From NCBI RefSeq assembly GCF_965641715.1, contig NZ_OZ282453.1: a stretch of 64,000 nucleotides of DNA, one strand, 5' to 3'. Under the pieces are notes generated by a model. It saw nothing but the letters and a program-made list of their open reading frames with translations. It was not told the origin of the DNA and made no database searches. The first letter of the stretch is position 1; each line of letters begins with the position of its first letter. A program made the translations under genes and the position numbers. Below, piece by piece: positions 394-20,898 of this stretch. This stretch comes from Escherichia coli. GTDB lineage: Bacteria; Pseudomonadota; Gammaproteobacteria; Enterobacterales; Enterobacteriaceae.

Positions 394-495
394 TGGGTTC
401 TCACTTCCTGACCATCAAAATTGACAACATCACCATCCTATAATTGACTGAAAAGGAATTAATCCCTGTAACTGGTGAAACATAAAACACGAATC

Positions 496-1419
496 ATGAA
501 TAATTTACCGCTGCTGAATGATTTGCGCGTCTTTATGCTGGTGGCTCGCCGGGCTGGTTTTGCCGCCGTGGCGGAAGAACTGGGCGTTTCACCGGCGTTC
601 GTCAGCAAGCGCATCGCCTTGCTGGAGCAAACGCTAAACGTGGTGTTGTTACACCGCACCACCCGCCGCGTCACCATTACCGAAGAAGGAGAGCGGATTT
701 ATGAATGGGCGCAGCGGATTTTGCAGGATGTCGGTCAGATGATGGACGAACTTTCTGACGTGCGTCAGGTGCCACAGGGGATGCTGCGTATTATCAGCAG
801 CTTTGGTTTTGGACGACAGGTGGTGGCTCCGGCGTTATCAGCGCTGGCGAAGGCGTATCCGCAACTGGAATTACGTTTTGATGTGGAAGACCGGCTGGTC
901 GATTTGGTCAATGAAGGTGTCGATCTCGATATTCGCATTGGCGATGACATCGCCCCTAATTTAATCGCCCGCAAACTGGCGACCAATTACCGCATTCTCT
1001 GCGCGTCGCCGGAATTTATTGCGCAACATGGCACGCCGAAACATTTAACCGATCTTTCTGCATTGCCGTGCCTGGTCATTAAAGAGCGCGATCATCCTTT
1101 TGGTGTCTGGCAATTACGCAATAAAGAAGGCCACCATGCGATTAAAGTCACCGGCCCACTGTCGTCTAATCATGGAGAAATTGTCCATCAGTGGTGTCTC
1201 GATGGGCAGGGGATTGCTCTGCGTTCCTGGTGGGATGTTAGCGAAAACATTGCCAGTGGTCATTTAGTGCAAGTGCTACCGGAATATTACCAGCCAGCGA
1301 ACGTCTGGGCCGTTTATGTTTCAAGGCTGGCGACGTCAGCGAAAGTGCGGATAACGGTAGAATTTTTACGCCAGTATTTTGCCGAGCACTACCCGAATTT
1401 TTCACTGGAGCATGCCTGA
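496..1419 (+). CDS. dmlR: LysR-family transcriptional regulator of dmlA
   Basis: ORF 475-1419; internal ATG at 496 gives a 307-aa product starting MNNLPLLNDLRVF, with an HTH LysR N-terminus; divergent from dmlA. Confidence 0.9.
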   Translation: MNNLPLLNDLRVFMLVARRAGFAAVAEELGVSPAFVSKRIALLEQTLNVVLLHRTTRRVTITEEGERIYEWAQRILQDVGQMMDELSDVRQVPQGMLRIISSFGFGRQVVAPALSALAKAYPQLELRFDVEDRLVDLVNEGVDLDIRIGDDIAPNLIARKLATNYRILCASPEFIAQHGTPKHLTDLSALPCLVIKERDHPFGVWQLRNKEGHHAIKVTGPLSSNHGEIVHQWCLDGQGIALRSWWDVSENIASGHLVQVLPEYYQPANVWAVYVSRLATSAKVRITVEFLRQYFAEHYPNFSLEHA

Positions 1420-1476
1420 TTAATGATTCAATTATCGGGTTGATATCAGGTTAAAACCTGATTTTCTCCTTTCTAA

Positions 1477-2184
<708 letters not shown>

Positions 2185-2267
2185 TGCTTTCAGCCCGCGT
2201 TGTCGCGGGCTTCCCATCTATAATCCTCCCTGATTCTTCTCTGATATGGTGCTAAAAAGTAACCAAT

Positions 2268-2290
2268 AAATGGTATTTAAAATGCAAATT
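2268..2290 (+). promoter_or_regulatory. Candidate NsrR-type operator in the yeaR promoter region
   Basis: AT-rich imperfect dyad aaatggtatttaaaatgcaaatt about 70 bp upstream of the yeaR ATG; yeaR-yoaG is a known NsrR/NarL-controlled operon. The match to the NsrR consensus is only partial. Confidence 0.3.
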
Positions 2291-2468
2291 ATCAGGCGTA
2301 CCCTGAAACGGCTGGAATAAACCGTTTTCAGCGCATTCACCGAAGGAGGGAAAAGGATGCTTCAAATCCCACAGAATTATATTCATACGCGCTCAACGCC
2401 TTTCTGGAATAAACAAACTGCACCTGCTGGAATATTCGAACGTCATCTTGATAAAGGAACGCGCCCGG

Positions 2469-2478
2469 GGGTTTACCC
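2469..2478. repeat. Left copy of the IS186 target-site duplication (gggtttaccc)
   Basis: Identical 10-mer directly abuts both IS ends; GC-rich target, typical for IS186. Confidence 0.7.
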
Positions 2479-3817
2479 CATAAGCGCTAACTTAAGGGTT
2501 GTGGTATTACGCCTGATATGATTTAACGTGCCGATGAATTACTCTCACGATAACTGGTCAGCAATTCTGGCCCATATTGGTAAGCCCGAAGAACTGGATA
2601 CTTCGGCACGTAATGCCGGGGCTCTAACCCGCCGCCGCGAAATTCGTGATGCTGCAACTCTGCTACGTCTGGGGCTGGCTTACGGCCCCGGGGGGATGTC
2701 ATTACGTGAAGTCACTGCATGGGCTCAGCTCCATGACGTTGCAACATTATCTGACGTGGCTCTCCTGAAGCGGCTGCGGAATGCCGCCGACTGGTTTGGC
2801 ATACTTGCCGCACAAACACTTGCTGTACGCGCCGCAGTTACGGGTTGTACAAGCGGAAAGAGATTGCGTCTTGTCGATGGAACAGCAATCAGTGCGCCCG
2901 GGGGCGGCAGCGCTGAATGGCGACTACATATGGGATATGATCCTCATACCTGTCAGTTCACTGATTTTGAGCTAACCGACAGCAGAGACGCTGAACGGCT
3001 GGACCGATTTGCGCAAACGGCAGACGAGATACGCATTGCTGACCGGGGATTCGGTTCGCGTCCCGAATGTATCCGCTCACTTGCTTTTGGAGAAGCTGAT
3101 TATATCGTCCGGGTTCACTGGCGAGGATTGCGCTGGTTAACTGCAGAAGGAATGCGCTTTGACATGATGGGTTTTCTGCGCGGGCTGGATTGCGGTAAGA
3201 ACGGTGAAACCACTGTAATGATAGGCAATTCAGGTAATAAAAAAGCCGGAGCTCCCTTTCCGGCACGTCTCATTGCCGTATCACTTCCTCCCGAAAAAGC
3301 ATTAATCAGTAAAACCCGACTGCTCAGCGAGAATCGTCGAAAAGGACGAGTAGTTCAGGCGGAAACGCTGGAAGCAGCGGGCCATGTGCTATTGCTAACA
3401 TCATTACCGGAAGATGAATATTCAGCAGAGCAAGTGGCTGATTGTTACCGTCTGCGATGGCAAATTGAACTGGCTTTTAAGCGGCTCAAAAGTTTGCTGC
3501 ACCTGGATGCTTTGCGTGCAAAGGAACCTGAACTCGCGAAAGCGTGGATATTTGCTAATCTACTCGCCGCATTTTTAATTGACGACATAATCCAGCCATC
3601 GCTGGATTTCCCCCCCAGAAGTGCCGGATCCGAAAAGAAGAACTAACTCGTTGTGGAGAATAACAAAAATGGTCATCTGGAGCTTACAGGTGGCCATTCG
3701 TGGGACAGTATCCCTGACAGCCTACAAAACGCAATTGAAGAACGCGAGGCATCGTCTTAACGAGGCACCGAGGCGTCGCATTCTTCAGATGGTTCAACCC
3801 TTAAGTTAGCGCTTATG
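2479..3817 (+). mobile_element. IS186 insertion sequence (IS4 family), about 1.34 kb
   Basis: Terminal inverted repeats cataagcgctaacttaagggttg (2479-2501) and its reverse complement (3795-3817); single transposase ORF inside; flanked by a 10-bp direct duplication. Confidence 0.9.
2534..3646 (+). CDS. insL: IS186 transposase InsL
   Basis: ORF 2528-3646; internal ATG at 2534 gives 370 aa, MNYSHDNWSAILAHIG...; lies inside the inverted-repeat-bounded element. Confidence 0.9.
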   Translation: MNYSHDNWSAILAHIGKPEELDTSARNAGALTRRREIRDAATLLRLGLAYGPGGMSLREVTAWAQLHDVATLSDVALLKRLRNAADWFGILAAQTLAVRAAVTGCTSGKRLRLVDGTAISAPGGGSAEWRLHMGYDPHTCQFTDFELTDSRDAERLDRFAQTADEIRIADRGFGSRPECIRSLAFGEADYIVRVHWRGLRWLTAEGMRFDMMGFLRGLDCGKNGETTVMIGNSGNKKAGAPFPARLIAVSLPPEKALISKTRLLSENRRKGRVVQAETLEAAGHVLLLTSLPEDEYSAEQVADCYRLRWQIELAFKRLKSLLHLDALRAKEPELAKAWIFANLLAAFLIDDIIQPSLDFPPRSAGSEKKN

Positions 3818-3827
3818 GGGTTTACCC
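3818..3827. repeat. Right copy of the IS186 target-site duplication (gggtttaccc)
   Basis: Direct repeat of 2469-2478 immediately after the right inverted repeat. Confidence 0.7.
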
Positions 3828-4068
3828 ACGCCTTTCCGTTATGCATGGGGCGGTCAAATATCTCGGCTACGCTGATGAACACAGTGCAGAGCCTGATCAG
3901 GTGATCCTTATCGAAGCGGGGCAGTTTGCGGTGTTCCCTCCAGAAAAGTGGCACAACATTGAAGCCATGACTGACGATACTTATTTCAACATTGACTTCT
4001 TCGTGGCTCCTGAAATCCTGATGGAAGGTGCGCAACAACGGAAAGTCATTCATAACGGGAAATGAATC

Positions 4069-4251
4069 ATGGGCAAAGCAACGTATACCGTGACCGTCAC
4101 CAATAACAGCAATGGCGTTTCTGTCGATTATGAAACAGAGACGCCGATGACTTTGCTGGTGCCAGAAGTGGCGGCTGAAGTGATAAAAGATCTGGTGAAT
4201 ACCGTGCGTTCTTATGACACGGAAAACGAACATGATGTTTGTGGTTGGTAA
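4069..4251 (+). CDS. yoaG: DUF1869 small protein, second gene of the yeaR-yoaG operon
   Basis: 60-aa ORF MGKATYTVTVTNNSNG... directly downstream of yeaR. Confidence 0.85.
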   Translation: MGKATYTVTVTNNSNGVSVDYETETPMTLLVPEVAAEVIKDLVNTVRSYDTENEHDVCGW

Positions 4252-4398
4252 TTATCACTGATCGTTGATGGCGCAATTTCTGCGCCATCGCAAAATAATC
4301 CTCCGTGATGCTCGTCACAAATCTTGCCCTCCCGATGTTGTGCTATGCTTTTTATCAGCGACTAACCCGCTAATGCAAAACAGATAAGTGAGGAAACA

Positions 4399-4647
4399 AT
4401 GGGCATTCTGTCATGGATTATTTTTGGGCTTATTGCCGGTATTCTGGCGAAGTGGATCATGCCAGGTAAAGATGGTGGTGGATTCTTTATGACTATCCTG
4501 CTGGGGATAGTCGGTGCCGTAGTCGGCGGATGGATCAGCACGCTGTTTGGCTTTGGTAAAGTTGATGGCTTCAATTTTGGCAGCTTCGTGGTTGCCGTTA
4601 TTGGTGCGATTGTCGTGCTATTTATCTACAGGAAGATTAAAAGTTAA
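4399..4647 (+). CDS. yeaQ: GlsB/YeaQ/YmgE-family small membrane protein
   Basis: 82-aa glycine-rich two-TM ORF; good RBS (gaggaaaca) upstream. Confidence 0.85.
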   Translation: MGILSWIIFGLIAGILAKWIMPGKDGGGFFMTILLGIVGAVVGGWISTLFGFGKVDGFNFGSFVVAVIGAIVVLFIYRKIKS

Positions 4648-4661
4648 CGCTTAAATTGCAC

Positions 4662-4696
4662 AAAGGCTGCACACAGGCAGCCTTTGCTATTTTTTA
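4662..4696 (+). terminator. Rho-independent terminator after yeaQ
   Basis: Hairpin aaaggctgc / gcagccttt followed by a T-run. Confidence 0.6.
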
Positions 4697-4705
4697 GAGG
4701 TGACG

Positions 4706-4780
4706 TTACCACCATCCCAGCTCAGTGCCGAGTACGACAATAATCGCCACACCCATCATAATAATCGTTGTTTTTTTCAT
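4706..4780 (-). CDS. yoaJ: Small hydrophobic protein (24 aa)
   Basis: Reverse-strand ORF MKKTTIIMMGVAIIVVLGTELGWW; below the ORF-track size cut-off, read by hand. Confidence 0.5.
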   Translation of the reverse strand: MKKTTIIMMGVAIIVVLGTELGWW

Positions 4781-4782
4781 CT

Positions 4783-4881
4783 TTATGCTCCCGGGGCAGC
4801 ATAGCCGCCAATAAAAAACCATGCTAAAAATACGACCGCTGTAATGAAGATTACAACCGGAAAAATAATACCGATTCGCAT
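4783..4881 (-). CDS. yoaK: Small hydrophobic protein (32 aa)
   Basis: Reverse-strand ORF MRIGIIFPVVIFITAVVFLAWFFIGGYAAPGA; read by hand. Confidence 0.5.
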   Translation of the reverse strand: MRIGIIFPVVIFITAVVFLAWFFIGGYAAPGA

Positions 4882-4913
4882 GTTATCACCAATCAAAAGG
4901 ATGTGAATACGCC

Positions 4914-5939
4914 TCAGGAATGTAGCGCTGGATGCGTGACAAAAGGTGTTTTCTGTTTGTGTTTTTTCTCCTGATACATCGCGATATCGGCAGCATGCAG
5001 GGCACTGTCTGCATCGGTCGTTTCAGGATCGACTTCTACTATGCCAAGACTGGCACCGGGATAATACAAATCAACATCACCTAAGTGATATTCTCCACGT
5101 ATTTGCTGTTGAATACGTTCTCGCAGCGACGAAATATCCGCATTCTCGTTGTTTAGTGAAACAACCAAAAACTCATCACCACCGAGACGACCAATAACTT
5201 CGCCATTTTGCTGGAGCGTATTAAGGCGCTCGCCAACCTGAATGAGAAACAGATCGCCACTATTATGACCAAAACGATCATTGATTAATTTGAAGTTATC
5301 CAGATCGATAAACGCGATCATTATCTTATGGTTAAGATGCCGGGCGAGGGAAAACAGCGTCGTCAGATTTTCAAAAATCGCCCGCCGATTCGGTAGCCCG
5401 GTTAACGAGTCGGTATACGATTGCGCAATCAGCGCAGCATTGGCTTCGCGCAGCTGTTCAACCAGTGCCTCTTTTTGAATATATTGTGCAATCAGTCCGG
5501 CGAATAACTGTAAAACCTGTTCCGCGCGTTCACTCCACTGGCGCTTCTCACTGCTGGCGGCGCAAAGCGTGCCATAGAATGATCCATCCGGTAAGTGAAT
5601 TGGCGTGCTCAGAAATGTGGTGATGCCAAGATTGCGTGCCGCAATACAGTCGCCCCAACGGTCAGGGACTTCATCGCTGAAAAAGCAGTTTTCATCAATG
5701 GCGCGTTTGCATAACGAGTAATCCCACGAGACGGTAAAATTCTCCGGGATGTGCATTTTCTGGCTGTTACGGGCAAACATAATATGCTGCAGGCGCGCTT
5801 CGACATCCACTTTGGTCAGGTAGGTTGATTCCATATCAGTGACCATTTCCAGCATCTCCAGAAGCTGTCGGACCAGACTTTCCAGTGACTGTTCTTTGGC
5901 AAGGGATTGCGAGACGCGGGCGATAATCTGATCTGACAC
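4914..5939 (-). CDS. dgcP: Diguanylate cyclase with GAF-like N-domain and GGDEF domain
   Basis: ORF 4914-6068 trimmed to the GTG at 5939 (341 aa, MSDQIIARV...); RLGGDEF motif present. Confidence 0.9.
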   Translation of the reverse strand: MSDQIIARVSQSLAKEQSLESLVRQLLEMLEMVTDMESTYLTKVDVEARLQHIMFARNSQKMHIPENFTVSWDYSLCKRAIDENCFFSDEVPDRWGDCIAARNLGITTFLSTPIHLPDGSFYGTLCAASSEKRQWSERAEQVLQLFAGLIAQYIQKEALVEQLREANAALIAQSYTDSLTGLPNRRAIFENLTTLFSLARHLNHKIMIAFIDLDNFKLINDRFGHNSGDLFLIQVGERLNTLQQNGEVIGRLGGDEFLVVSLNNENADISSLRERIQQQIRGEYHLGDVDLYYPGASLGIVEVDPETTDADSALHAADIAMYQEKKHKQKTPFVTHPALHS

Positions 5940-6121
5940 GGAACAACTCCAGGATACGGCGGGTAAATGCTGATTATTTAATCTTTGCAGGCATGATAAA
6001 ACATCATCAACAAAGATGAAACAAGACGTAATATGTTTTGAGTGAATGTAATAAAAATAGTGCTGCAAAACAAAACGATACCGCGATACTCTAAGCTTGG
6101 ATACATATGTGAGATCAATAA

Positions 6122-6376
6122 ATGAAAATTATCAGTTTTGTTCTGCCTTGCTTGCTGATCCTAGCTGGTTGTTCAACCCGTTCTCAGCCAGAAGCACCTA
6201 AACCGCCGCAGATTGGTATGGCAAATCCGGCGTCGGTCTATTGCCAGCAGAAGGGCGGGACGCTCATTCCAGTGCAGACAGCGCAAGGGGTCAGCAACAA
6301 TTGCAAATTACCGGGTGGTGAAACGATTGATGAATGGGCATTGTGGCGACGGGACCATCCGGCTGGTGAAAAATAA
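6122..6376 (+). CDS. yoaF: DUF333 lipoprotein
   Basis: 84-aa ORF with a lipobox signal peptide (LLILAGCSTRS). Confidence 0.85.
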   Translation: MKIISFVLPCLLILAGCSTRSQPEAPKPPQIGMANPASVYCQQKGGTLIPVQTAQGVSNNCKLPGGETIDEWALWRRDHPAGEK

Positions 6377-6397
6377 CCGCCGGATGCCGTACTAAAA

Positions 6398-6745
6398 TCA
6401 CAAGCTACGTAGCCAGTCGGCCAGCACCAGCGCATGGTTCTGCGTGGCGTTTTTTGCTGAGTAGAGCAGGGTCAGCGGCTGTTTTTTGGCGATGTCCGCT
6501 AGCCGCTTTCCTTCTTGCTCGTGTTGCGCCAGTTCTGCAAGATATTGCTCGCGAAAGGTTGCAAAATCGACGACTTCGCCGTGAAAGGCTTTGCGCAGTT
6601 CCGTTGACGGCGTGATTTCTTTATCCCACTCATCAAGGGCTAAATCGGTTTTTTTGATACCGCGCGGCCAGAGGCGGTCGACCAGTATGCGATAACCATC
6701 GCTCTGTTCTGCCGGATCATAAACGCGTTTGCACTGAATATTCAT
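6398..6745 (-). CDS. yeaO: DUF488 protein
   Basis: ORF 6398-6766 trimmed to the internal ATG (115 aa, MNIQCKRVYD...). Confidence 0.85.
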   Translation of the reverse strand: MNIQCKRVYDPAEQSDGYRILVDRLWPRGIKKTDLALDEWDKEITPSTELRKAFHGEVVDFATFREQYLAELAQHEQEGKRLADIAKKQPLTLLYSAKNATQNHALVLADWLRSL

Positions 6746-6799
6746 CGTGTTTGTTCTCCCTTTCACGCATGATTTGTCACGTCACTATAGCACCGGATA

Positions 6800-7981
6800 T
6801 TAGCGAATTTCTTTGTCTCTTCCGGCGCAAAGTCCGAAAATCGCCATCAGTAGTGAAAGTATTGCAACACCCATCAGTGGTACGGACCAGTCACCGTTAG
6901 CATCGTGCATTTTACCCATCAGCGGCGGCCCACAGGCTGCCAGCAAATACCCGACGGATTGTGCCATCCCCGAGAGTGCCGCCGCCTGATGCGCAGAACT
7001 TGCCCGAAGACCAATGAACGTCAACCCCAGTATCATTGTTGCGCCGGAACCAAAACCGAAAAGCAGAGTCCAGGTGATCGCATGCGCTGGCATAAAGCAG
7101 AGCCCAACCGCGCCCACTGCGCACATCAAGGCAACGAACGCTGCAATACCACGCTGATCTTTCACATGATGTAAGAAAAGTGGGATCAGCAAACCGGGCG
7201 CTGCTGTGGCTAGTTGCAGCAAACCATGCAGTGAACCCGCCTGTGCTTCGCTATAGCCGTGACTGATGAGGATCGCCGGAAGCCAGCCAATAATCACGTA
7301 ATAGATCAGTGAGTTGATCCCAAGAAACAATGTTACCTGCCAGGCAAGCGGCGAACGCCAGATACCCCGAGTATGTAAGGCGCGCGAGGTACTCAAATTT
7401 GCATGTTGTTGGCTTCGCCACTGTGGCAGCCATAAAAAAAGAGCCAGCAGAGGAAAACACATCAGCATGAGCAACGCGCCTTGCCAGCCAAAACCGTTCA
7501 AAGCCAGCGGCACTACCATAGCCGATCCCAGAGCCGCCGCAGCTCCCATTGTCAGGGAATATGCGCCGGTAAGTCTGGCGACGGAATGAGGGAAATCGCG
7601 TTTAATTAATCCTGGCAGTAAGACATTACCTAATGCAATCCCACCGCCAATGACCGCTGTACCGCCAAATAATAAGTAAGGCGAAGGGAGAGAGCGAATT
7701 GCGATACCTGCACAGATCAAAAGTAACGCGGCAAACAGGCTACGTTCCATACCAAAACGTCGCGCCACCGGGGCAGCCAGAGGTGAGATTAGCGCAAAGG
7801 CCAATAATGGCAGGGTGGTCAATAAGCCGGTTTGCGCAGTCGTCAGCGAGTAAGCGGAACGAATCGTATCGAGTAACGGTGCTGCGCCGGTGAAGGTGAC
7901 GCGTAATGTAGTGGCAATCATCAGAATGCCAGCGATAAGGACAATCCTGTTTTTGCCGCTTAATGAAGTTGAACAGGTCAT
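6800..7981 (-). CDS. yeaN: MFS transporter (2-nitroimidazole exporter NimT)
   Basis: 393-aa, 12-TM-like ORF; divergent from the AraC regulator yeaM. Confidence 0.85.
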   Translation of the reverse strand: MTCSTSLSGKNRIVLIAGILMIATTLRVTFTGAAPLLDTIRSAYSLTTAQTGLLTTLPLLAFALISPLAAPVARRFGMERSLFAALLLICAGIAIRSLPSPYLLFGGTAVIGGGIALGNVLLPGLIKRDFPHSVARLTGAYSLTMGAAAALGSAMVVPLALNGFGWQGALLMLMCFPLLALFLWLPQWRSQQHANLSTSRALHTRGIWRSPLAWQVTLFLGINSLIYYVIIGWLPAILISHGYSEAQAGSLHGLLQLATAAPGLLIPLFLHHVKDQRGIAAFVALMCAVGAVGLCFMPAHAITWTLLFGFGSGATMILGLTFIGLRASSAHQAAALSGMAQSVGYLLAACGPPLMGKMHDANGDWSVPLMGVAILSLLMAIFGLCAGRDKEIR

Positions 7982-8077
7982 ATGCTTCTCATTGTTACAA
8001 ACGAGGCTGTACCTTACCGTTTTTATTGTTATGTTGAATCAAGCTAAAATGACAAATTATCGCTAAATTCGGACAAA

Positions 8078-8899
8078 ATGATGCACAGGTTGAATCTCAA
8101 TGGCTATGAACCCGACCGACACCATGAAGCCGCGGTCGCATTTTGTATTCACGCCGGAACGGATGAGTTAACCAGTCCTGTACATCAGCACCGCAAAGGA
8201 CAGCTGATACTGGCGCTACATGGTGCAATTACCTGTACGGTGGAAAATGCTTTGTGGATGGTGCCGCCACAATATGCGGTTTGGATACCGGGCGGGGTGG
8301 AACATAGCAATCAAGTGACAGCTAACGCTGAACTCTGTTTTCTGTTTATCGAACCCAGCGCAGTGACAATGCCGACAACATGTTGCACATTGAAAATATC
8401 GCCCTTATGCCGGGAATTGATTTTAACCCTGGCAAACAGGACGACGACTCAGCGTGCTGAGCCGATGACCCGCAGATTAATTCAGGTCCTGTTTGATGAA
8501 CTCCCTCAGCAGCCACAACAACAGCTGCACCTGCCCGTTTCTTCTCATCCTAAAATCCGCACGATGGTGGAGATGATGGCGAAAGGGCCCGTCGAGTGGG
8601 GGTCATTGGGGCAATGGGCTGGCTTTTTTGCGATGAGTGAACGCAATCTTGCCCGACTGATAGTAAAAGAGACGGGGTTGAGTTTTCGCCAGTGGCGTCA
8701 GCAGTTACAGCTGATTATGGCGCTTCAGGGATTAGTGAAAGGCGATACTGTACAGAAAGTTGCTCATACGCTGGGGTATGATTCAACAACGGCCTTTATT
8801 ACTATGTTTAAGAAAGGCCTGGGGCAAACGCCAGGCCGATATATTGCGGGATTAACTACTGTTTCCCCACAATCAGCGAAACCAGACCCGCGGCAATAA
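8078..8899 (+). CDS. yeaM: AraC-family transcriptional regulator (NimR)
   Basis: 273-aa ORF with a cupin-like N-domain and AraC HTH C-terminus. Confidence 0.85.
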
Positions 8900-9302
8900 G
8901 CGGGCCAACCGGTACGCCGCGAAACAGCGCCACGCCTAAAACAGTGCCCACCAGCAGCCCGGCGACCAGTTGCGGCTGGCTGCCCATTAACGTCACGCCG
9001 CGCCCACCCAGCCAGGAGACAATAACGCCTACTGCAATTGCCACCAGCGATTTCCAGTTCAGAAACGAGTGAATCAGGGTTGAGGGTGGTAGCGTCCCGC
9101 TGGCGATGGGGGCCATAACGCCAATCGTCAGAATGATTATCCCGATACTTAGCCCCTGTTTTTCAATCCACGGGAAAAAGGTGCTTAACGGTGTGACGCG
9201 GACAATGATCAACACCAGAATTGAAACGGCGACAGTGGTGTTATGACTGATAAAGCCCAGCGCAGCTAACCCGAGCAGGATCAGCAAAGTGACATCAAAC
9301 AT
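8856..9302 (-). CDS. yeaL: DUF441 inner-membrane protein
   Basis: 148-aa hydrophobic ORF; its 3' end overlaps the yeaM 3' end by about 44 bp. Confidence 0.85.
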
Positions 9303-9471
9303 CGTGGTTTCCTTGCCAAAAAATAATAAGCCTGCTTACTTTACGCTTGCTGCAGGAAGGAAGTAGAAAATCTTTACGTTTTTTGCATAAAAAATCAGGC
9401 GAACTGTCATCAAACTGCCATTTGTGCACGCTAACAATAACGTGAAAACAGCTATCTCCCGGGGGCATACT

Positions 9472-9576
9472 ATGAACGATCAAATGTTCGTCGAGACACT
9501 GATTATCACGTCATCGTTTTTTGCCATTGCGGTTGTGCTGGTTTTGTCCGTTCTGCTTATTGAACGGACAGGCTAG
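9472..9576 (+). CDS. yoaI: Small membrane protein (34 aa)
   Basis: [37 protein letters not shown], read by hand; abuts the yeaK stop. Confidence 0.5.
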
Positions 9577-10080
9577 TTACGCAGTGCGGCGGAAATTGAT
9601 CAGTTCTGGTTGCGCAATGCGCAAATAATCCGCGGTTTTCAAAATAACGGATTTATCCAGCATCCCTGCATTGAAGGCGATTTCATCAAATCGTTCGAAG
9701 AGTAGGGGGTCGGCAACCAGTTTGAGTTTTGGATGGAAGCTGAAAGGGGGGATCGCGCCGAAGACACAGCCTGTGAGTTCATCGACTTCCGCCGGGCTGG
9801 CCAACGAAGCGCGTAATCCGCCTATATGGCTGGCGAGTTGGCTCAGATCGGCCTGTTGATCGGCAGCGAGGATCGCCAGAACATGTTGATTTACGCCATT
9901 GCCTTTGACTTTACATACCAGTGCCTTAGCACCCTGGCCTAGAGCGGTGCCACGAATTTCTGACACCGCTTCACATTTACCTACCGCTTCATGGGTAACG
10001 ACGCGGAAATCAGCACCTTCTTGTGATAATAAAGCGATTAACCGCTGATGCGTCACGCTTCCTTTAGCCATTTCAGTCAT
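9577..10080 (-). CDS. yeaK: YbaK/ProX-type aminoacyl-tRNA deacylase
   Basis: 167-aa ORF; synteny. Confidence 0.85.
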   Translation of the reverse strand: MTEMAKGSVTHQRLIALLSQEGADFRVVTHEAVGKCEAVSEIRGTALGQGAKALVCKVKGNGVNQHVLAILAADQQADLSQLASHIGGLRASLASPAEVDELTGCVFGAIPPFSFHPKLKLVADPLLFERFDEIAFNAGMLDKSVILKTADYLRIAQPELINFRRTA

Positions 10081-10122
10081 TTCACGCTCCTGAGATTACA
10101 AGCAAACAACCACAGAAGGTTA

Positions 10123-11613
10123 TCATGAACGGCTGTTTTTGTTCTGCTTATTGACATATAAACGCTCATCGGAAGCTTTATACGCATCATGTAACGTATC
10201 GTTTTCTTTCATCGCGTAAATACCGGAAGAGAAGCCGATCTCTTTCTGCGGCGCGATATGTTGCAGACGTTTTTCGATACGTTCAGGCAGTTGTGCTGCA
10301 ATTTGCGGCGTCGAATCGACAAGAATGATGCAGAATTCATCGCCACCGAGTCGGATGGCATAATCACTTTTACGAATCGATTGTTTAATCGCCTGAGCTA
10401 ACAACGTAATCGCTAAATCCCCTTCCTGATGACCGAGGGTGTCATTTATTAGCTTTAACTTGTCCATGTCAATTGCAATAAACATCACCGAAGAACCGGA
10501 TTGCACCAGTTTCTGCAACCGCTGCTCCAGTTCAGGGGTTAAAATTTTGCGATTATACAGTCCAATCATCGCATCACTAATATTTTCTCGCGACACATTT
10601 TGGTATAAACGGAAGTGCATCCGGACCATATTCAGCAAAATTAACGCCGTCAAAATCCAGAACAGAACGCTTTTCCACGAAGACGTGATAAAGTAAAGAA
10701 TATCAATGGATAACGAGACACGAATGCCGCCCGGTAAGTCATGGACGTAACTGACATACTGGAACAGATTATCTTCGCTCTGGTTGATGATAATGTCGCG
10801 CCCCGAATCTGTATCGGTTAGCGTGACATTGAGAAAACGCCAGAGGAGAGGGCGGTCATGAGTGTAAAAGATATTCCGCAGATTGTTTTTGTTAATATCC
10901 AGCAGCACAATCCCTTTTAGCTGCCCTGCAACATACACCGGCGTCAGCAAACTCATCACGTTCTGTTTAGTACGCTGATCCTGGTAAATGCTCGACAATA
11001 CGGTACGCCCGGTAAATACCTTTTCAATATCTTTGCGATCGATGCCAATACTTCCTGACTGCAGGAAGGACCAGTTATTCATCGCAAAGTATTCAACATT
11101 AACCGGCTCATAAAAATAGACATAGCGGTCATTGAGATCGAGATAATAGTGAAATTTCTCTTCGGCCATCCCAAGACCTGAACCGTAATCATCCTGGTGG
11201 CGGTTGCCTTCCACTGCCTGATCAAAAGCGGGTAATAGTGCTGCAGCTTCCACAATTGTGTCGCAGTCAGTGGATGCGGTTTGTAGTGTGCCGCGTAAGC
11301 CCGGGTATTTATGGGCAGTCAGGTTTAAGCCATGGGTATTATTGGCAGACTCAAAAGCCTCGCAGATGGCGCGCCGCTGTTCTGGCGACACTTCCGACTG
11401 CTCAGCAGCGAGAGCGCGCATCACATGCGCGGCAATACTCTGATTCTGATACTTATCATAAAGAAAGGAGGAGTCTGCTTTCTGCACGATATAGCGCAGA
11501 TAGGCACTCATTGCTCTGTCGCTGGCGACAAGTTCAAAAATAAGGAAGGAAGATGTCAGCACAATGACACTTGCGGCGATAAAATGCCGGAGCATTCTAT
11601 GGTGCAATTTCAT
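10123..11613 (-). CDS. dgcJ: Membrane diguanylate cyclase with periplasmic sensor domain and GGDEF domain
   Basis: ORF 10123-11793 trimmed to the ATG at 11613 (496 aa, MKLHHRMLRHF...); RLGGDEF motif. Confidence 0.9.
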   Translation of the reverse strand: MKLHHRMLRHFIAASVIVLTSSFLIFELVASDRAMSAYLRYIVQKADSSFLYDKYQNQSIAAHVMRALAAEQSEVSPEQRRAICEAFESANNTHGLNLTAHKYPGLRGTLQTASTDCDTIVEAAALLPAFDQAVEGNRHQDDYGSGLGMAEEKFHYYLDLNDRYVYFYEPVNVEYFAMNNWSFLQSGSIGIDRKDIEKVFTGRTVLSSIYQDQRTKQNVMSLLTPVYVAGQLKGIVLLDINKNNLRNIFYTHDRPLLWRFLNVTLTDTDSGRDIIINQSEDNLFQYVSYVHDLPGGIRVSLSIDILYFITSSWKSVLFWILTALILLNMVRMHFRLYQNVSRENISDAMIGLYNRKILTPELEQRLQKLVQSGSSVMFIAIDMDKLKLINDTLGHQEGDLAITLLAQAIKQSIRKSDYAIRLGGDEFCIILVDSTPQIAAQLPERIEKRLQHIAPQKEIGFSSGIYAMKENDTLHDAYKASDERLYVNKQNKNSRS

Positions 11614-11793
11614 GATAAATGGCACTCCTTCGGTTAGTGAAACGAGAAAACCAGATAAAGTTCGATTGCGGCCTGGCACAGGGGCGCTAATTATACTCAT
11701 CTCTGCGCCGCTGGGGAGGGGAAATTTAGGGGTAATAGTAATAAATTGTATGCAAAAGCCACGCAAAAAGCATGGCTCTGAATATTTTTGCAC

Positions 11794-13269
11794 TTAAATA
11801 TGATGAATAATCACTTTGTTGCCCCCCTCGCTTTTCGCTTCGCGTAAGGCTTTATCTGCTTCCGTCATGACAAGCGAGATATTACGCGTGTCACCCGTTG
11901 AAAAAACCGTGCCAATACTGATGGTCATTTGTTCAGGAACATCATATCTGTTACTAAAGCCGGTCAGGAGTTCGACATTTTTACGCATACGTTCCGCAAT
12001 GATTTTTGCCTGGGCACTATTGAGTTCGGTAAATAGCAAGCCAAACACCTCACCCTCCAGTCGCGCTAAAATATCATCGGGGCGGATGCTTTGCTGGATA
12101 ATATCGACAATTGAAACCAGCACTTTATCACCCACACGATGTCCCCATTGGGCATTGATGCGTTTGAACTGATTAATATCAACCAGCATGACACAGAAGT
12201 CCTTAACAACAGGTCGCGACAATAATGACTCTACGCTGTTGAAAAAGTAGCGCCGATTGTAAATATTGGTCAGCACATCATGAACTGCCAGTTTGCTGGA
12301 GAGTTGCAGCTCCTGAAAAATGTTATAAATCAGAAAAGACACAACAAACAGTTTACTGGAGACTTCAATCCCGCGACTGATATACCAGATGGTATAATTA
12401 TACTCATCCAGAGTCAGTAGAAGTAAGTTGCAGCATAGCGATGCCAGACATAATAATGCTATTAACGGCCATAGTTCGCTGGCTAATCGTGTACGCATGA
12501 TAATAAAGAACAGTAAAAATGCCCACAGACAAACCAATATTTTTGTATAGTTGATTCCCCAGGTCGCAGTATGGTTGTCCGGACAGTAATCGACGACATA
12601 CAAAGAATAGTCAGCGTTATAACTGCTCAGATTGTGTGCCAGAAGGGGAAAAACTAAAAAAGGAATCAGCGCCAGCAACAGAATGCCAGTTTTTTTCTTA
12701 TTGTTGTCAAGGATGTTGTCTTTTCCATAACAAAAGAGCGCCAGCGAGGTTAAACAAATAAAACTGAGTTGGCGGAAAATATAGAAAATAGAAACATCAT
12801 TCGACTTTGTCTGGATCAGTGTACTGCCGTTAATTGGTTTATGGATAATTACAATGGTTTCAACTAAATAGATAAGGCCACTTAAAAATGCAAGGCTTAA
12901 AATGAGTGTTGGTAAAATTTGTTTGTTAGTGAAATATTTCATTAACATGAAAAGAAAAATGACGGCGTTAAGGAAAAACAAAGCCACAACAACCATCAGG
13001 TAATTCATCTGTGGGATGAGTTTTACATTTGTGTTTTCGTTATATAAGGTAGTAATGCAAAATAAAATTAACGTCAGCAATAAACTGAAAATAAAAAAGC
13101 TTTGAGCTTTTAATTTTTGTGTACCCATAGAAACCATAAAAAGGAGAGCAATGTGAGTGCTGGATTTTATTGATGGCAGAGATATATGGTTTTGACCAGG
13201 ATCAATTTTCGTTAACGATAAAAAATATTTAAAGAATAACCCCATGGAAATACGTGTTGACTGAATCAT
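11794..13269 (-). CDS. cdgI: Membrane protein with degenerate GGDEF domain (c-di-GMP binding, CdgI)
   Basis: 491-aa ORF; multi-TM N-terminal half; C-terminal GGDEF fold whose motif reads EGEVF instead of GGDEF; AT-rich. Confidence 0.85.
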   Translation of the reverse strand: MIQSTRISMGLFFKYFLSLTKIDPGQNHISLPSIKSSTHIALLFMVSMGTQKLKAQSFFIFSLLLTLILFCITTLYNENTNVKLIPQMNYLMVVVALFFLNAVIFLFMLMKYFTNKQILPTLILSLAFLSGLIYLVETIVIIHKPINGSTLIQTKSNDVSIFYIFRQLSFICLTSLALFCYGKDNILDNNKKKTGILLLALIPFLVFPLLAHNLSSYNADYSLYVVDYCPDNHTATWGINYTKILVCLWAFLLFFIIMRTRLASELWPLIALLCLASLCCNLLLLTLDEYNYTIWYISRGIEVSSKLFVVSFLIYNIFQELQLSSKLAVHDVLTNIYNRRYFFNSVESLLSRPVVKDFCVMLVDINQFKRINAQWGHRVGDKVLVSIVDIIQQSIRPDDILARLEGEVFGLLFTELNSAQAKIIAERMRKNVELLTGFSNRYDVPEQMTISIGTVFSTGDTRNISLVMTEADKALREAKSEGGNKVIIHHI

Positions 13270-13415
13270 TTTTCCGAATGATTGTTTTCTGGAACTAAAT
13301 TATGTAAAGGTTATGCTGTCATATTTAAAGCGATTGTAAGCTAATGTATGTAATAAATGAGATAATTTACAGTAAGCTAAAAATCAGCCAGGCGATAATG
13401 ACCCGGCTGATAGTT

Positions 13416-14711
<1,296 letters not shown>

Positions 14712-14811
14712 CTACATTTGCCAACTGTATGCTACGCCTGTGTTGCCGCTTCTCAGGCCCACGGTTCGCTGTCGTTGTAGGCCCGGTAGCATGTGTACCG
14801 GGCCAGGGTTG

Positions 14812-16746
14812 TTAAGACGATTTACGTACGCGCAAATACCATTCGCACAGTAAACGCACCTGTTTACGGGTGTAGCCTTTTTCCATCATACGGTCGACAA
14901 AGTCGTCGTGTTTCTTCTGCTCGTCGGTTGACGTTTTGGCGTTAAACGAGATAACCGGCAACAGCTCCTCGGTATTGGAGAACATTTTCTTCTCGATAAC
15001 CGTGCGCAGTTTTTCATAGCTGGTCCAGTTCGGATTGCGTCCGCTGTTATTCGCTCTGGCGCGCAGTACGAAGTTAACAATCTCGTTGCGGAAATCTTTT
15101 GGATTACTGATCCCCGCCGGTTTCTCGATTTTCTCCAGCTCGGCGTTAAGAGACTCGCGGTCAAACAGCTGCCCGGTATCCGGATCGCGATACTCCTGAT
15201 CCTGAATCCAGAAATCCGCGTAGGTAACATAACGGTCGAAAATGTTTTGCCCATATTCGGAATAGGATTCAAGGTAGGCCGTCTGGATCTCTTTGCCAAT
15301 AAACTCGGCATATTTCGGGATCAGATAACCTTTCAGGAACTCCAGATAGCGTTCTGCCTGCTCTTGTGGGAACTGCTCGCGCTCGATCTGCTGTTCCAGG
15401 ACGTAGAACAGATGGACCGGGTTTGCCGCCACTTCTACATGATCGAAGTTGAACACGCGGGAGAGGATCTTAAACGCAAAACGCGTCGACAGACCGTTCA
15501 TCCCTTCATCGACACCGGCGTAGTCACGATATTCCTGATACGACTTGGCTTTGGGATCGGTGTCTTTCAGACTTTCGCCATCATAAACCCGCATCTTTGA
15601 ATAAATGCTGGAGTTTTCTGGCTCTTTCAGGCGCGAAAGAATGGAAAAACGTGACAGTGTTTCGAGCGTGCCAGGGGCGCATGGGGCGTGAGTCAATTCA
15701 CTGTGATTAAGCAATTTCTCGTAGATTTTGATCTCTTCGGAAATGCGCAAGCAATACGGCACCTTCACGATGTAAACACGATCGAGGAAGGCTTCGTTGT
15801 TTTTGTTATTACGGAAAGTGACCCATTCGGACTCGTTCGAGTGGGCAAGAATAATCCCGTTGAACGGCAGGGCGGAGATACCTTCCGTCCCGTTGTAGTT
15901 ACCTTCCTGAGTGGCGGTTAACAAGGGATGCAGCACTTTAATCGGTGCTTTAAACATCTCAACGAATTCCATGATCCCCTGGTTGGCGCGGCACAGTGCG
16001 CCGGAATAGCCATAGGCGTCTGGGTCATTCTGCGCGTAGTGTTCGAGTTTACGAATATCCACTTTCCCTACCAGCGCGGAGATGTCCTGGTTGTTCTCAT
16101 CACCGGGCTCTGTTTTGGCGATGGCAATTTGTTGCAGAATTGACGGCCAGACCTTCACTACCCGGAACTTAGTGATATCGCCACCAAATTCATGCAGGCG
16201 TTTTGCCGCCCACGGCGACATGATGGTGCCGAGATAACGGCGAGGAATGCCATACTCTTTTTCCAGAATCTGCGCATCTTCCTGCGGATTGAAAAGACAG
16301 AACGGATGATCGTTGACCGGGCTACGCTCACCGTTGGCGCTCAATACATAAATCGGTACGAGCTGCATTAATGATTTCAGTCGCTCAGCAAGCGATGATT
16401 TACCCCCACCCACAGGCCCCAGCAGATACAGGATTTGTTTCTTCTCTTCCAGCCCCTGAGCCGCGTGTTTCAGATAAGAGACAATCTGTTCAATCGCGTC
16501 TTCCATGCCGTAAAACTCTTCAAACGCCGGATAACGTGCAATGACCCGGTTAGAAAAGAGTCGAGAAAGTCTGGGTTCCTGGGCTGTATCGACCATGACA
16601 GGCTCACCGATAGCCATCAATAGCCGCTCAGCCGCGTTGGCATAAGCACTGCGATCTTGCCGACAAGTGGTAAGAAACTCCTGCAGTGTGAACTCTTCGT
16701 CCTTGGCAGCTTCATATCGCTGGCGATAGTGATCGAATATATTCAT
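14812..16746 (-). CDS. yeaG: PrkA-family serine protein kinase
   Basis: 644-aa ORF with a P-loop GPVGGGKSS. Confidence 0.9.
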   Translation of the reverse strand: MNIFDHYRQRYEAAKDEEFTLQEFLTTCRQDRSAYANAAERLLMAIGEPVMVDTAQEPRLSRLFSNRVIARYPAFEEFYGMEDAIEQIVSYLKHAAQGLEEKKQILYLLGPVGGGKSSLAERLKSLMQLVPIYVLSANGERSPVNDHPFCLFNPQEDAQILEKEYGIPRRYLGTIMSPWAAKRLHEFGGDITKFRVVKVWPSILQQIAIAKTEPGDENNQDISALVGKVDIRKLEHYAQNDPDAYGYSGALCRANQGIMEFVEMFKAPIKVLHPLLTATQEGNYNGTEGISALPFNGIILAHSNESEWVTFRNNKNNEAFLDRVYIVKVPYCLRISEEIKIYEKLLNHSELTHAPCAPGTLETLSRFSILSRLKEPENSSIYSKMRVYDGESLKDTDPKAKSYQEYRDYAGVDEGMNGLSTRFAFKILSRVFNFDHVEVAANPVHLFYVLEQQIEREQFPQEQAERYLEFLKGYLIPKYAEFIGKEIQTAYLESYSEYGQNIFDRYVTYADFWIQDQEYRDPDTGQLFDRESLNAELEKIEKPAGISNPKDFRNEIVNFVLRARANNSGRNPNWTSYEKLRTVIEKKMFSNTEELLPVISFNAKTSTDEQKKHDDFVDRMMEKGYTRKQVRLLCEWYLRVRKSS

Positions 16747-17181
16747 GGTATGCCGTCCTTTCGTTTTTTAGCACAGGTTAAGAGCCGTTCATATGAATAG
16801 TAGAGGCTCCCGGAAGAGGTAAACTGAACGACGTCTCTTGCTAAAACACAGCAACTCTCATGCCATTTTATCGACGATGAGAACAACGTGCCCGGTGATA
16901 CACCTTCAAAATTAAGCGTAGATGGCAAATGGAAAACTTGCCTACACGGCTTTCTTAATTTCAATGGCATATCAACAACTCATCCATACATTTTGCATAA
17001 TTAATGTAAAGACTAGGCTCGCCAGTAACGCTAAATTCATTTGGCTGTAAGCGCGGTGTCATCCGCGTCAGGAAAATTAAACAGTTACTTTAAAAAATGA
17101 AAACGTAAAAAGGTTGGGTTTCGATGTATTGACGGGTAAACTTTGTCGCCCGCTAAACATTTGTTTAAGGAATGATTAATT

Positions 17182-17928
17182 GTGACCAAACTCAAACTTC
17201 TGGCACTTGGAGTGCTTATCGCAACGTCTGCAGGCGTAGCGCACGCTGAAGGTAAATTTTCCCTGGGCGCAGGCGTAGGTGTCGTTGAACACCCATATAA
17301 AGATTACGATACCGATGTTTACCCAGTACCGGTAATCAACTATGAAGGCGATAACTTCTGGTTCCGTGGCTTAGGTGGTGGTTACTACCTGTGGAATGAC
17401 GCAACGGATAAACTTTCAATTACCGCTTACTGGTCGCCGCTTTACTTCAAAGCTAAAGACAGTGGCGATCACCAAATGCGTCACCTGGATGACCGTAAGA
17501 GCACCATGATGGCTGGTCTGTCTTATGCTCACTTTACCCAGTACGGTTACCTGCGTACCACCCTGGCTGGCGATACCCTGGATAACAGCAACGGCATCGT
17601 CTGGGATATGGCCTGGTTGTATCGTTACACCAACGGTGGCCTGACCGTGACTCCGGGTATTGGTGTGCAGTGGAACAGCGAAAACCAGAACGAATACTAT
17701 TATGGCGTATCGCGCAAAGAGTCCGCTCGCAGCGGTCTGCGTGGCTATAATCCGAACGACAGCTGGAGCCCTTACCTGGAGCTGAGCGCCAGCTACAACT
17801 TCCTCGGCGACTGGAGTGTTTACGGTACCGCGCGCTATACCCGTCTGTCTGATGAAGTTACTGACAGCCCGATGGTGGATAAATCCTGGACTGGCCTGAT
17901 TTCTACCGGGATCACCTACAAATTCTGA
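17182..17928 (+). CDS. mipA: Outer-membrane MltA-interacting scaffold protein
   Basis: 248-aa ORF with a GTG start and signal peptide; beta-barrel-like aromatic C-terminus (ITYKF). Confidence 0.9.
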   Translation: MTKLKLLALGVLIATSAGVAHAEGKFSLGAGVGVVEHPYKDYDTDVYPVPVINYEGDNFWFRGLGGGYYLWNDATDKLSITAYWSPLYFKAKDSGDHQMRHLDDRKSTMMAGLSYAHFTQYGYLRTTLAGDTLDNSNGIVWDMAWLYRYTNGGLTVTPGIGVQWNSENQNEYYYGVSRKESARSGLRGYNPNDSWSPYLELSASYNFLGDWSVYGTARYTRLSDEVTDSPMVDKSWTGLISTGITYKF

Positions 17929-17959
17929 TAATGCATCTTTCCAGGGCATTTTGTGCATA

Positions 17960-17985
17960 AAAACAGGGCGTCACGCCCTGTTTTG
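17960..17985 (+). terminator. Rho-independent terminator after mipA
   Basis: Hairpin cagggcg-tca-cgccctg followed by tttt. Confidence 0.6.
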
Positions 17986-18017
17986 CATTACGGTGGTGCA
18001 ATACCTGGGAGGAAACA

Positions 18018-18872: not shown

Positions 18873-18915
18873 TGTTGATACGTGCCGGATGCATCGCACC
18901 CGGCACACAACATTA
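18873..18915. repeat. REP-like palindrome between yeaE and yeaD
   Basis: gtgccggatgcatcgcacccggcac dyad in the convergent intergenic region. Confidence 0.35.
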
Positions 18916-18922
18916 ACGCAAA

Positions 18923-19807: not shown

Positions 19808-19837
19808 GACGCAGTCCTTTAACTTCATTTTATCAGG

Positions 19838-19870: not shown

Positions 19871-19890
19871 GATCACAGTGTCATCTCAAC

Positions 19891-20898
<1,008 letters not shown>

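Follow-up and report, generated by a model that had tools for sequence, protein, structure and literature searches.

The segment at positions 4914-13269 of the window (the whole 64,000-nucleotide stretch of Escherichia coli DNA that was analysed) corresponds, with a probability of about 0.9, to the known and already characterised core-genome stretch that runs from dgcP (yeaP) to cdgI (yeaI). As parts of the same explanation, CdgI is in all likelihood unable to make c-di-GMP and able to bind it, and the three GGDEF genes of the segment are very probably independently regulated members of the large GGDEF repertoire of E. coli, and not a demonstrated functional module. The genes of the segment, together with two tiny ORFs that follow dgcP, are listed below.

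4706-4780, minus strand: yoaJ, a tiny ORF 100% identical to K-12 yoaJ (K-12 annotation)
4783-4881, minus strand: yoaK, a tiny ORF 100% identical to K-12 yoaK (K-12 annotation)
4914-5939, minus strand: dgcP (yeaP), a cytoplasmic GAF-GGDEF diguanylate cyclase of 341 aa with a GTG start, 98.9% identical to K-12 over its full length
6122-6376, plus strand: yoaF, a DUF333 lipoprotein (Pfam DUF333, E=3.7e-21; K-12 annotation)
6398-6745, minus strand: yeaO, a DUF488 protein, not membrane (Pfam DUF488 and DUF488-N3i; K-12 match)
6800-7981, minus strand: nimT (yeaN), an MFS transporter annotated as a 2-nitroimidazole exporter (Pfam MFS_1; K-12 annotation)
8078-8899, plus strand: nimR (yeaM), an AraC-family regulator (Pfam HTH_18 and AraC_binding; K-12 annotation)
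8856-9302, minus strand: yeaL, a DUF441 inner-membrane protein (Pfam DUF441, E=2.7e-44)
9472-9576, plus strand: yoaI, a small protein of 34 aa, 94.3% identical to K-12 yoaI (K-12 annotation)
9577-10080, minus strand: yeaK, an aminoacyl-tRNA editing-domain protein (Pfam tRNA_edit, E=3.3e-27; K-12 annotation)
10123-11613, minus strand: dgcJ (yeaJ), a membrane diguanylate cyclase of 496 aa, 99.2% identical to K-12
11794-13269, minus strand: cdgI (yeaI), a MASE4-GGDEF inner-membrane protein (Pfam MASE4 and GGDEF)

The three GGDEF-family genes that an earlier note on this DNA had reported within about 8 kb were all present and intact, all on the minus strand, and the identities and domain types that it had assigned (GAF-GGDEF for dgcP and membrane sensor-GGDEF for dgcJ) agreed with the Pfam and K-12 matches. 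Nucleotide identity of cdgI, dgcJ and dgcP to their K-12 counterparts (b1785, b1786 and b1794, respectively) was 98.9-99.4%, and the proteins differed from those of K-12 by one residue in CdgI (Y28H), two in DgcJ and two in DgcP, none of them located in a motif. Gene by gene, identity to K-12 was 97.6-99.4% with no indels, the only exception being the 105-nt yoaI. The segment is inverted relative to K-12, a matter of orientation only, as the genes, their order and their relative orientation are the same. This order, cdgI-dgcJ-yeaK-yoaI-yeaL-nimR-nimT-yeaO-yoaF-dgcP, is that of a conserved E. coli chromosomal segment, and the 8.4 kb were found at a coverage of at least 80% in 5399 of the 5426 complete E. 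coli genomes; no complete RefSeq E. coli genome matched these 8.4 kb with 100% identity, and the highest value was 99.6%. An origin of the window from Shigella flexneri was rejected because cdgI is missing from that species. K-12 MG1655 differs in lacking the IS186/IS421-type insertion that the window carries in the nearby yeaR. Regarding the small features of the region, the yoaK/yoaJ pair (4706-4881) begins 32 nt past the end of dgcP, also on the minus strand, and yoaK was called downstream of dgcP also in E. albertii and Citrobacter. The gene nimR is divergent from nimT and overlaps yeaL by 44 nt at its 3' end, and yeaK, described in the K-12 annotation as a mischarged aminoacyl-tRNA deacylase, lies 42 nt past the end of dgcJ, likewise on the minus strand. 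Rfam searches at gathering thresholds gave no matches to non-coding RNA elements such as riboswitches in positions 1-20000 of the window.

The RLGGDEF motif previously noticed in DgcP and DgcJ was located at residues 251-257 and 421-427, respectively. In DgcP the A-site is intact (GGDEF, residues 253-257, nt 5169-5183) and the RxxD I-site is missing, with QNGE in its place (nt 5199-5210). Pfam matched GAF_2 (E=1.7e-10; GAF was also matched) and GGDEF (E=3.9e-41; PF00990, 140.9 bits against a cut-off of 23.8), TIGR00254 was also passed, and no hydrophobic segments were found in the protein. The mechanical ORF of this gene extends to 6068, as compared with the GTG start at 5939. Judged by its sequence, DgcP presents all the features of an active cyclase and no product-inhibition site. 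The S. flexneri DgcP increased c-di-GMP. According to published expression data DgcP is made in growing cells under the control of vegetative RpoD-RNAP, with lower levels in stationary phase; YeaP is listed as a verified diguanylate cyclase in PMC3484386.

DgcJ matched GAPES1 (E=7.9e-151, 501 bits) and GGDEF (E=1.5e-37; PF00990, 129.3 bits against a cut-off of 23.8; TIGR00254 also passed), as well as the NCBIfam equivalog diguan_DgcJ (NF040885), with 742 bits for a cut-off of 500. Both its A-site (GGDEF, residues 423-427, nt 10333-10347) and its I-site (RKSD, nt 10363-10374) are present, and two hydrophobic segments (residues 8-26 and 309-327) flank the GAPES1 domain, which is called periplasmic by Pfam and in PMC9637222. 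All the features from which an active cyclase is predicted are thus found in DgcJ together with an I-site, and YeaJ of both E. coli and Salmonella is referred to as an active cyclase in the literature. Salmonella YeaJ detects AI-2 via GAPES1, and AI-2-sensing homologues have been reported in E. coli (PMC9637222); the AI-2-binding residues of the Salmonella protein recur in the DgcJ of the window (Y at index 210 and D at index 239), a correspondence established by index and not by alignment. Upregulation in swarming cells has been reported for dgcJ along with dgcM and dgcO, and not for dgcP or cdgI.

CdgI matched MASE4 (PF17158, residues 88-319; E=1.4e-48, 165.8 bits against a cut-off of 28.4) and GGDEF (E=9.1e-45; PF00990, 152.7 bits against a cut-off of 23.8; TIGR00254 also passed), and contains about 7-8 hydrophobic 19-residue segments. 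The annotated start of the 491-aa protein (13269) is probably too far upstream, and the conserved start would be M45 or M48 (13137 or 13128, respectively); the upstream 44 codons are broken by stops in E. albertii and Citrobacter. The replacement of the GGDEF motif by EGEVF, also pointed out in the earlier note, was confirmed at residues 405-409 (nt 12043-12057). With phmmer, the CdgI stretch 'arlEGEVFgllf' aligned column for column with 'srfGGEEFvilf' of solved cyclases (6zxm and others), which places EGEVF in the active-site position and not outside it. The A-site is degenerate at two positions, with G to E at position 1 and E to V at position 4, and further changes with respect to GGEEF orthologues are DID to DIN, IND to INA and GRN to GGN. 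The I-site is intact (RPDD, residues 396-399, nt 12073-12084) and is followed by ILARL and then, five residues on, by EGEVF; in the alignment RPDD falls on the RKSD of 6zxm, and alanines take the place of both the R and the D of this motif in the related entries 6zxb and 6zxc. As the RxxD of the I-site is kept and the catalytic motif has decayed, CdgI should be able to bind c-di-GMP and not to make it. Purified CdgI, the I-site of which is intact in that study too, does bind c-di-GMP (PMC5635695, Fig. S4B). Both the sequence and the published binding support the proposal that CdgI is a c-di-GMP receptor rather than a cyclase, which is established annotation and not new. A text search of the literature for 'EGEVF' together with yeaI gave no match.

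In CdgI, DgcT (YcdT) and DgcX a GGDEF domain follows the MASE4 membrane domain, and published work places DgcT and DgcX as the closest relatives of CdgI. However, these two are reported to be active cyclases with GGEEF, whereas CdgI has EGEVF. Caulobacter PopA and Pseudomonas PelD are examples of degenerate GGDEF proteins in which the I-site serves as a c-di-GMP receptor. The combination of a degenerate A-site and a conserved c-di-GMP-binding RxxD is common to this type and to CdgI, but the latter is anchored by MASE4 and the former by receiver or GAF-like domains.

In an alignment of 19 CdgI homologue sequences, the I-site residues R396 and D399 were invariant (19/19). The A-site read EGEVF, EGEEF, DGEVF, EGDVF, EGNVF or EGKRF in eight distinct orthologue sequences (at least 64% identity) and GGEEF in all 10 more distant homologues. 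GGEEF is retained by the syntenic Citrobacter-type cdgI orthologues and is present in the homologues P0028-P0034 (38-44% identical to CdgI). P0028 and P0029 were rejected as CdgI orthologues because their genomic contexts are unrelated, and they were taken as paralogues.

These data bear on the possibility that CdgI, in spite of its EGEVF motif, retains weak or conditional diguanylate cyclase activity. The older literature counted YeaI among the proteins with 'verified diguanylate cyclase activity', and CdgI keeps the K, N, D and R that contact GTP ('KNAHDR' versus 'KNDHDR'; both in PMC3484386, where the positions are tabulated). However, two residues of GG[D/E]EF are replaced, as described above, and the orthologues show a motif that is free to vary, as far as EGNVF and EGKRF, unlike what is expected of a catalytic site. 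Complementation of the CFT073 yeaI deletion by the cyclase WspR points in both directions, since it was obtained in no-salt LB but not in glycerol medium, and a c-di-GMP-independent role of YeaI in glycerol medium was concluded for this strain (PMC3484386). Later work handles CdgI as catalytically inactive (PMC5635695, PMC10459773). We therefore consider residual cyclase activity of CdgI very unlikely.

The dN/dS of cdgI between E. coli and E. albertii was 0.073 (0.071 for the GGDEF part and 0.074 for the membrane part), values that are approximate because dS between both species is close to 1, and the gene is under purifying selection. At least 80% of cdgI was matched in 5408 of the 5426 complete E. 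coli genomes. These figures, the invariant I-site, the phenotypes reported for cdgI deletions and the reported control of its transcription by SrsR make it extremely improbable that the gene is a silent, decaying pseudogene without function, even though it is AT-rich (GC 0.39), the database includes truncated protein clusters with no GGDEF domain (P0013, P0019 and P0023), S. flexneri lacks it and its product is undetectable under standard laboratory conditions (PMC5635695). The drift of the A-site with an invariant I-site, together with purifying selection, argues that CdgI is a maintained regulator and not genetic debris, most likely kept for a regulatory role in c-di-GMP sensing and/or GGDEF-domain binding.

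A MASE4-GGDEF gene was found between yeaH and a GAPES1-GGDEF gene in E. albertii, two metagenome lineages and two Citrobacter-type loci, with the upstream gene cut off in the shortest contig (L010), and a GAF-GGDEF gene lay downstream in every syntenic locus with a contig long enough. In all the orthologous loci examined DgcJ retains RKSD and GGDEF and DgcP retains GGDEF. In all six lineages examined cdgI and dgcJ were direct neighbours on one strand, with 167-190 nt between them. The three-gene order would accordingly predate the divergence of Escherichia and Citrobacter, and the cdgI orthologue very probably lost catalysis in the lineage including Escherichia and was then retained by selection.

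In a post hoc simulation of 200,000 trials that scattered 19 GGDEF genes randomly over 4.64 Mb, about 0.9% of the trials brought three of them within 8.4 kb. Chance is thus a poor account of the clustering, but conserved synteny (inherited gene order) explains it. A recent tandem duplication was rejected as the origin of the cluster because the GGDEF domains of the three proteins share just 28-31% identity and their N-terminal regions show no relationship. Between dgcP and dgcJ lie seven genes, distributed over both strands, and a single transcript for dgcP, dgcJ and cdgI is thus not plausible. The description of the intervening genes as small membrane-protein genes and the nimR/nimT pair does not hold for all of them: yeaO and yeaK show no membrane signature, yoaF encodes a lipoprotein and no gene lies between cdgI and dgcJ, which are directly adjacent with a 180-nt spacer at 11614-11793. 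Consensus scans of this spacer revealed no convincing promoter and no terminator-like site, but the counts did not exceed the shuffled expectation and were uninformative. The adjacency conserved in every lineage sampled leaves room for co-transcription and functional coupling of cdgI and dgcJ.

The earlier note had considered plausible a local c-di-GMP signalling hub with two synthases and one effector. In such a hub CdgI would be a dedicated effector for the c-di-GMP of DgcJ and/or DgcP, or a c-di-GMP-gated inhibitor acting through GGDEF heterodimers, and the clustering would reflect this partnership. The conserved cdgI-dgcJ pair, the lack of a terminator-like hairpin in its spacer and the low frequency of such clusters at random are in its favor, and so are the binding of c-di-GMP by CdgI and the strong heteromeric contacts of its GGDEF domain with several GGDEF domains in two-hybrid assays (PMC5635695). 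However, those partners are not tied to DgcJ or DgcP in the accessible text of that paper, and no link of CdgI to either protein was found in the published or computed evidence. The sensor domains of the three proteins are unrelated, and published protein levels differ strongly, CdgI being undetectable under conditions in which DgcP belongs to the cyclases with stronger expression. The proven local effector of DgcJ is NfrB, on which it acts by direct protein contact (PMC8669469). This module, a documented case of local DgcJ action, uses the dgcJ of the window, but NfrB is not among the genes of the segment and the known module therefore does without the neighbours cdgI and dgcP. Besides the distance of dgcP from the cdgI-dgcJ pair, the same order occurs in Citrobacter-type loci with a GGEEF orthologue, which makes the clustering older than the receptor role, and S. 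flexneri has kept an active dgcP without cdgI and with the GGDEF domain of dgcJ deleted. All these results make the hub improbable.

A particular version of the inhibitor idea, to which we give a similarly low likelihood, is that CdgI, after the loss of catalysis, became a c-di-GMP-gated 'anti-cyclase' whose GGDEF domain forms heterodimers with DgcJ or other cyclases and blocks them. CdgI would then be induced under some condition, and the conserved I-site would set the feedback. If this were true, the adjacent cdgI and dgcJ would be a sensor-inhibitor pair and the Citrobacter-type GGEEF orthologues would represent the ancestral three-cyclase state. The reading that we prefer is still that of three independently regulated genes, one of which encodes a non-catalytic c-di-GMP receptor.

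The locus, the EGEVF motif, the intact I-site and the binding of c-di-GMP by CdgI are all already published, which is why the genes bear systematic names, and the finding has little significance beyond confirming the annotation. The GGEEF Citrobacter-type orthologues, the drift of the A-site with a fixed I-site and the purifying selection on cdgI are new but minor additions, which could help in the search for the output of CdgI. The Citrobacter-type GGEEF protein and the degenerate CdgI constitute a natural pair of active and inactive orthologues for swap experiments.

The ORF list, per-gene BLAST against K-12 MG1655 and megablast agreed in identifying window 4914-13269 as the E. coli chromosomal segment from dgcP (yeaP) to cdgI (yeaI), which is inverted with respect to K-12 and contains the following genes:

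Genes of the dgcP-cdgI segment (window positions)
4914-5939, minus strand, dgcP (GTG start)
6122-6376, plus strand, yoaF
6398-6745, minus strand, yeaO
6800-7981, minus strand, nimT
8078-8899, plus strand, nimR
8856-9302, minus strand, yeaL
9472-9576, plus strand, yoaI
9577-10080, minus strand, yeaK
10123-11613, minus strand, dgcJ (yeaJ)
11794-13269, minus strand, cdgI

These genes share 97.6-99.4% identity with K-12, with the exception of yoaI (105 nt, 94.3%), and no indels were found in them by gene-by-gene BLAST. The proteins differ from those of K-12 by one residue in CdgI (Y28H), two in DgcJ (T350I and Q388L) and two in DgcP (Y63H and A335T), all outside the motifs. Of 5,426 complete E. 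coli genomes searched by megablast, 5,399 contain the entire 8.4-kb segment with at least 80% coverage, and it therefore belongs to the core genome.

Several features of the region were also recorded. The convergent yeaL and nimR share 44 nt where their 3' ends meet (window 8856-8899), as in K-12. The minus strand, which carries dgcP, also has two very short ORFs at window 4706-4881, yoaK (32 aa) and yoaJ (24 aa), which begin 32 nt beyond the 3' end of dgcP. A yoaK call follows dgcP in E. albertii and Citrobacter too, which suggests that dgcP and yoaK may form a conserved unit. An IS186/IS421-type (IS4 family) element of 1,338 bp (window 2479-3816) interrupts yeaR (flanks 2357-2478 and 3817-4065), and 11 bp of the target (yeaR nt 112-122) are duplicated, one copy on either side. 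This insertion is absent from K-12 MG1655, and its junction region was matched at 80% coverage or more in 157 of the 5,426 genomes.

The three GGDEF-family genes of the earlier note were confirmed by Pfam, in a locus that is already known: GAF_2 (E=1.7e-10) and GGDEF (E=3.9e-41) were found in DgcP, GAPES1 (E=7.9e-151) and GGDEF (E=1.5e-37) in DgcJ, and MASE4 (E=1.4e-48) and GGDEF (E=9.1e-45) in CdgI. The description of DgcP as a GAF-GGDEF and of DgcJ as a membrane sensor-GGDEF protein, each carrying RLGGDEF, matched these domains and the motif positions (GGDEF at residues 253-257 and 423-427, respectively). DgcJ also passes the NCBIfam DgcJ equivalog (742 bits, cut-off 500), and its GAPES1 domain is flanked by two hydrophobic segments; CdgI has about 7-8, and none were found in DgcP. 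As for the genes said to separate the three, nimR and nimT are present, but "small membrane-protein genes" was incomplete, given that yeaO (DUF488) and yeaK (tRNA-editing domain) lack a membrane-protein signature. Furthermore, the separation holds for dgcP but not for cdgI and dgcJ, which are directly adjacent.

At the catalytic A-site CdgI reads EGEVF (residues 405-409). That this is truly the active-site position was borne out by phmmer against solved cyclases, in which CdgI ARLEGEVFGLLF aligned gap-free with SRFGGEEFVILF of 6zxm and GRYGGEEFGIIL of 3ign. A published residue table agrees, giving KNAHDREGEVF for yeaI versus KNDHDRGGDEF for yeaJ and yeaP (PMC3484386). Five residues before EGEVF, CdgI RPDD aligns with RKSD of 6zxm and is consistent with a c-di-GMP-binding I-site (RxxD), because the related entries 6zxb and 6zxc have alanine in place of both the R and the D of this motif. 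DgcJ has RKSD at the same site, and DgcP lacks an RxxD motif, with QNGE there.

Nineteen CdgI homologues were aligned. The eight distinct sequences with at least 64% identity, which come from E. coli, divergent clusters labelled as E. coli, E. albertii and two metagenome lineages, have EGEVF, EGEEF, DGEVF, EGDVF, EGNVF or EGKRF at the A-site; DIN, INA and GGN predominate among their other catalytic-region motifs, and DID is kept in the two sequences that diverge most. The Citrobacter-type positional orthologues (clusters P0020, P0024 and P0025, 57-62% identical) have GGEEF with DID, IND and GRN, and the more distant homologues, two of which are paralogues by genomic context, have GGEEF with DID, IND and either GRN or GKN. 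R396 and D399 of the I-site were unchanged in 19/19. As the A-site wanders while the adjacent I-site is frozen, the alignment fits a CdgI that would have lost catalysis and retained nucleotide binding. Public data also contain three sizeable clusters of truncated CdgI (P0013, P0019 and P0023), each with 249-934 members, in which sequences of 281-345 aa have MASE4 alone; these may represent pseudogenes of particular lineages or artefacts of contig ends.

The receptor rather than cyclase role proposed in the earlier note is right and was previously published: CdgI has been described as a degenerate GGDEF protein whose A-site is degenerate and whose I-site is intact, and the purified protein binds c-di-GMP (Sarenko et al. 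2017, PMC5635695). It has also been grouped with DgcT and DgcX in the MASE4-GGDEF family and termed catalytically non-functional (Cimdins-Ahne et al. 2023, PMC10459773). However, YeaI has been listed with verified cyclase activity, and WspR complemented a yeaI deletion in one medium, although not in another (PMC3484386). Residual catalysis is nevertheless highly improbable, since the A-site motif drifts among orthologues.

The cdgI gene is not decaying; its dN/dS versus E. albertii is 0.073 (Nei-Gojobori; approximate, dS being about 1), with similarly approximate values of 0.071 for the GGDEF and 0.074 for the membrane domain. Those of dgcJ (0.034) and dgcP (0.046) are of the same order, and a match to at least 80% of cdgI was found in 5,408 of 5,426 complete genomes. 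The annotated 491-aa frame probably begins too far upstream: in E. albertii and Citrobacter, where orthologues are called at 445-448 aa from the equivalent of M45/M48, stop codons interrupt the equivalents of the first 44 codons (window 13138-13269, minus strand). Y28H falls within this doubtful extension. In addition, cdgI is AT-rich (GC 0.386, MASE4 part 0.360; window 0.498, neighbours 0.46-0.55), which may be related to its reported laboratory silence, for example through nucleoid-protein silencing; CdgI is undetectable under standard conditions and toxic when overexpressed (PMC5635695).

The clustering of these GGDEF genes is non-random and its cause is old. When the 19 GGDEF-domain genes of K-12 (PMC5635695) were placed at random on 4.64 Mb, three landed within 8.4 kb of one another in roughly 0.9% of the simulated placements, in a post hoc test. 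Recent duplication was ruled out, because the GGDEF domains are pairwise only 28-31% identical and the N-terminal halves unrelated. The order yeaH, MASE4-GGDEF, GAPES1-GGDEF, yeaK … GAF-GGDEF is shared by E. albertii, a metagenome lineage (L009) and two Citrobacter-type loci, and the MASE4-GGDEF/GAPES1-GGDEF pair is kept on a short contig of one further lineage. The yeaL-yeaO interval is variable (L002, E. albertii, 13834-14725; L009, 5508-7249; L004, Citrobacter-type, 16421-17128): nimR and nimT are both missing from E. albertii, L009 has the MFS gene and no called AraC-family gene, and the Citrobacter-type loci carry an additional glutamine-amidotransferase-domain gene after nimT.

The local c-di-GMP hub proposed for the three proteins is unsupported, no functional link among them having been found in the computed results or the literature consulted. 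Their sensor domains are unrelated and their published expression patterns differ. DgcP is among the more strongly expressed cyclases of growing cells, under vegetative RpoD-RNAP control (PMC5635695). The cdgI gene is reported under CsrA repression (PMC5635695) and as a target of the regulator SrsR. Seven genes on both strands lie between dgcP and the cdgI-dgcJ pair, and the gene order is older than the loss of catalysis in CdgI. DgcJ is an active cyclase whose documented local partner, the glycosyltransferase NfrB, specifically activated through direct contact (PMC8669469), is outside this segment's genes. Moreover, S. flexneri has a working dgcP, whose product increases c-di-GMP, yet lacks cdgI and has lost the dgcJ GGDEF domain by deletion. 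The Salmonella DgcJ orthologue senses autoinducer-2 via GAPES1, with Y210 and D239 reported critical and AI-2-sensing homologues reported in E. coli (PMC9637222); the window DgcJ has Y and D at these indices, matched by index alone and not by alignment.

That cdgI and dgcJ alone are functionally linked is unsupported and unlikely, although their adjacency is kept in every locus examined, a consensus scan of the 180-nt spacer found nothing resembling a terminator, and strong heteromeric contacts are reported between the GGDEF domain of CdgI and several further GGDEF domains (PMC5635695). The authors of that study speculated that CdgI may inhibit cyclases, modulated by c-di-GMP. The dgcJ frame is open across this whole spacer (window 11614-11793, minus strand), giving a mechanical ORF of 556 aa whose GTG directly follows the stop codon of cdgI; the start that is annotated and conserved is Met at 11613.

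To what was known of this locus these results make modest additions only, namely the GGEEF of the Citrobacter-type positional orthologues, the drift of the A-site versus the invariance of the I-site, and the estimate of selection on cdgI.
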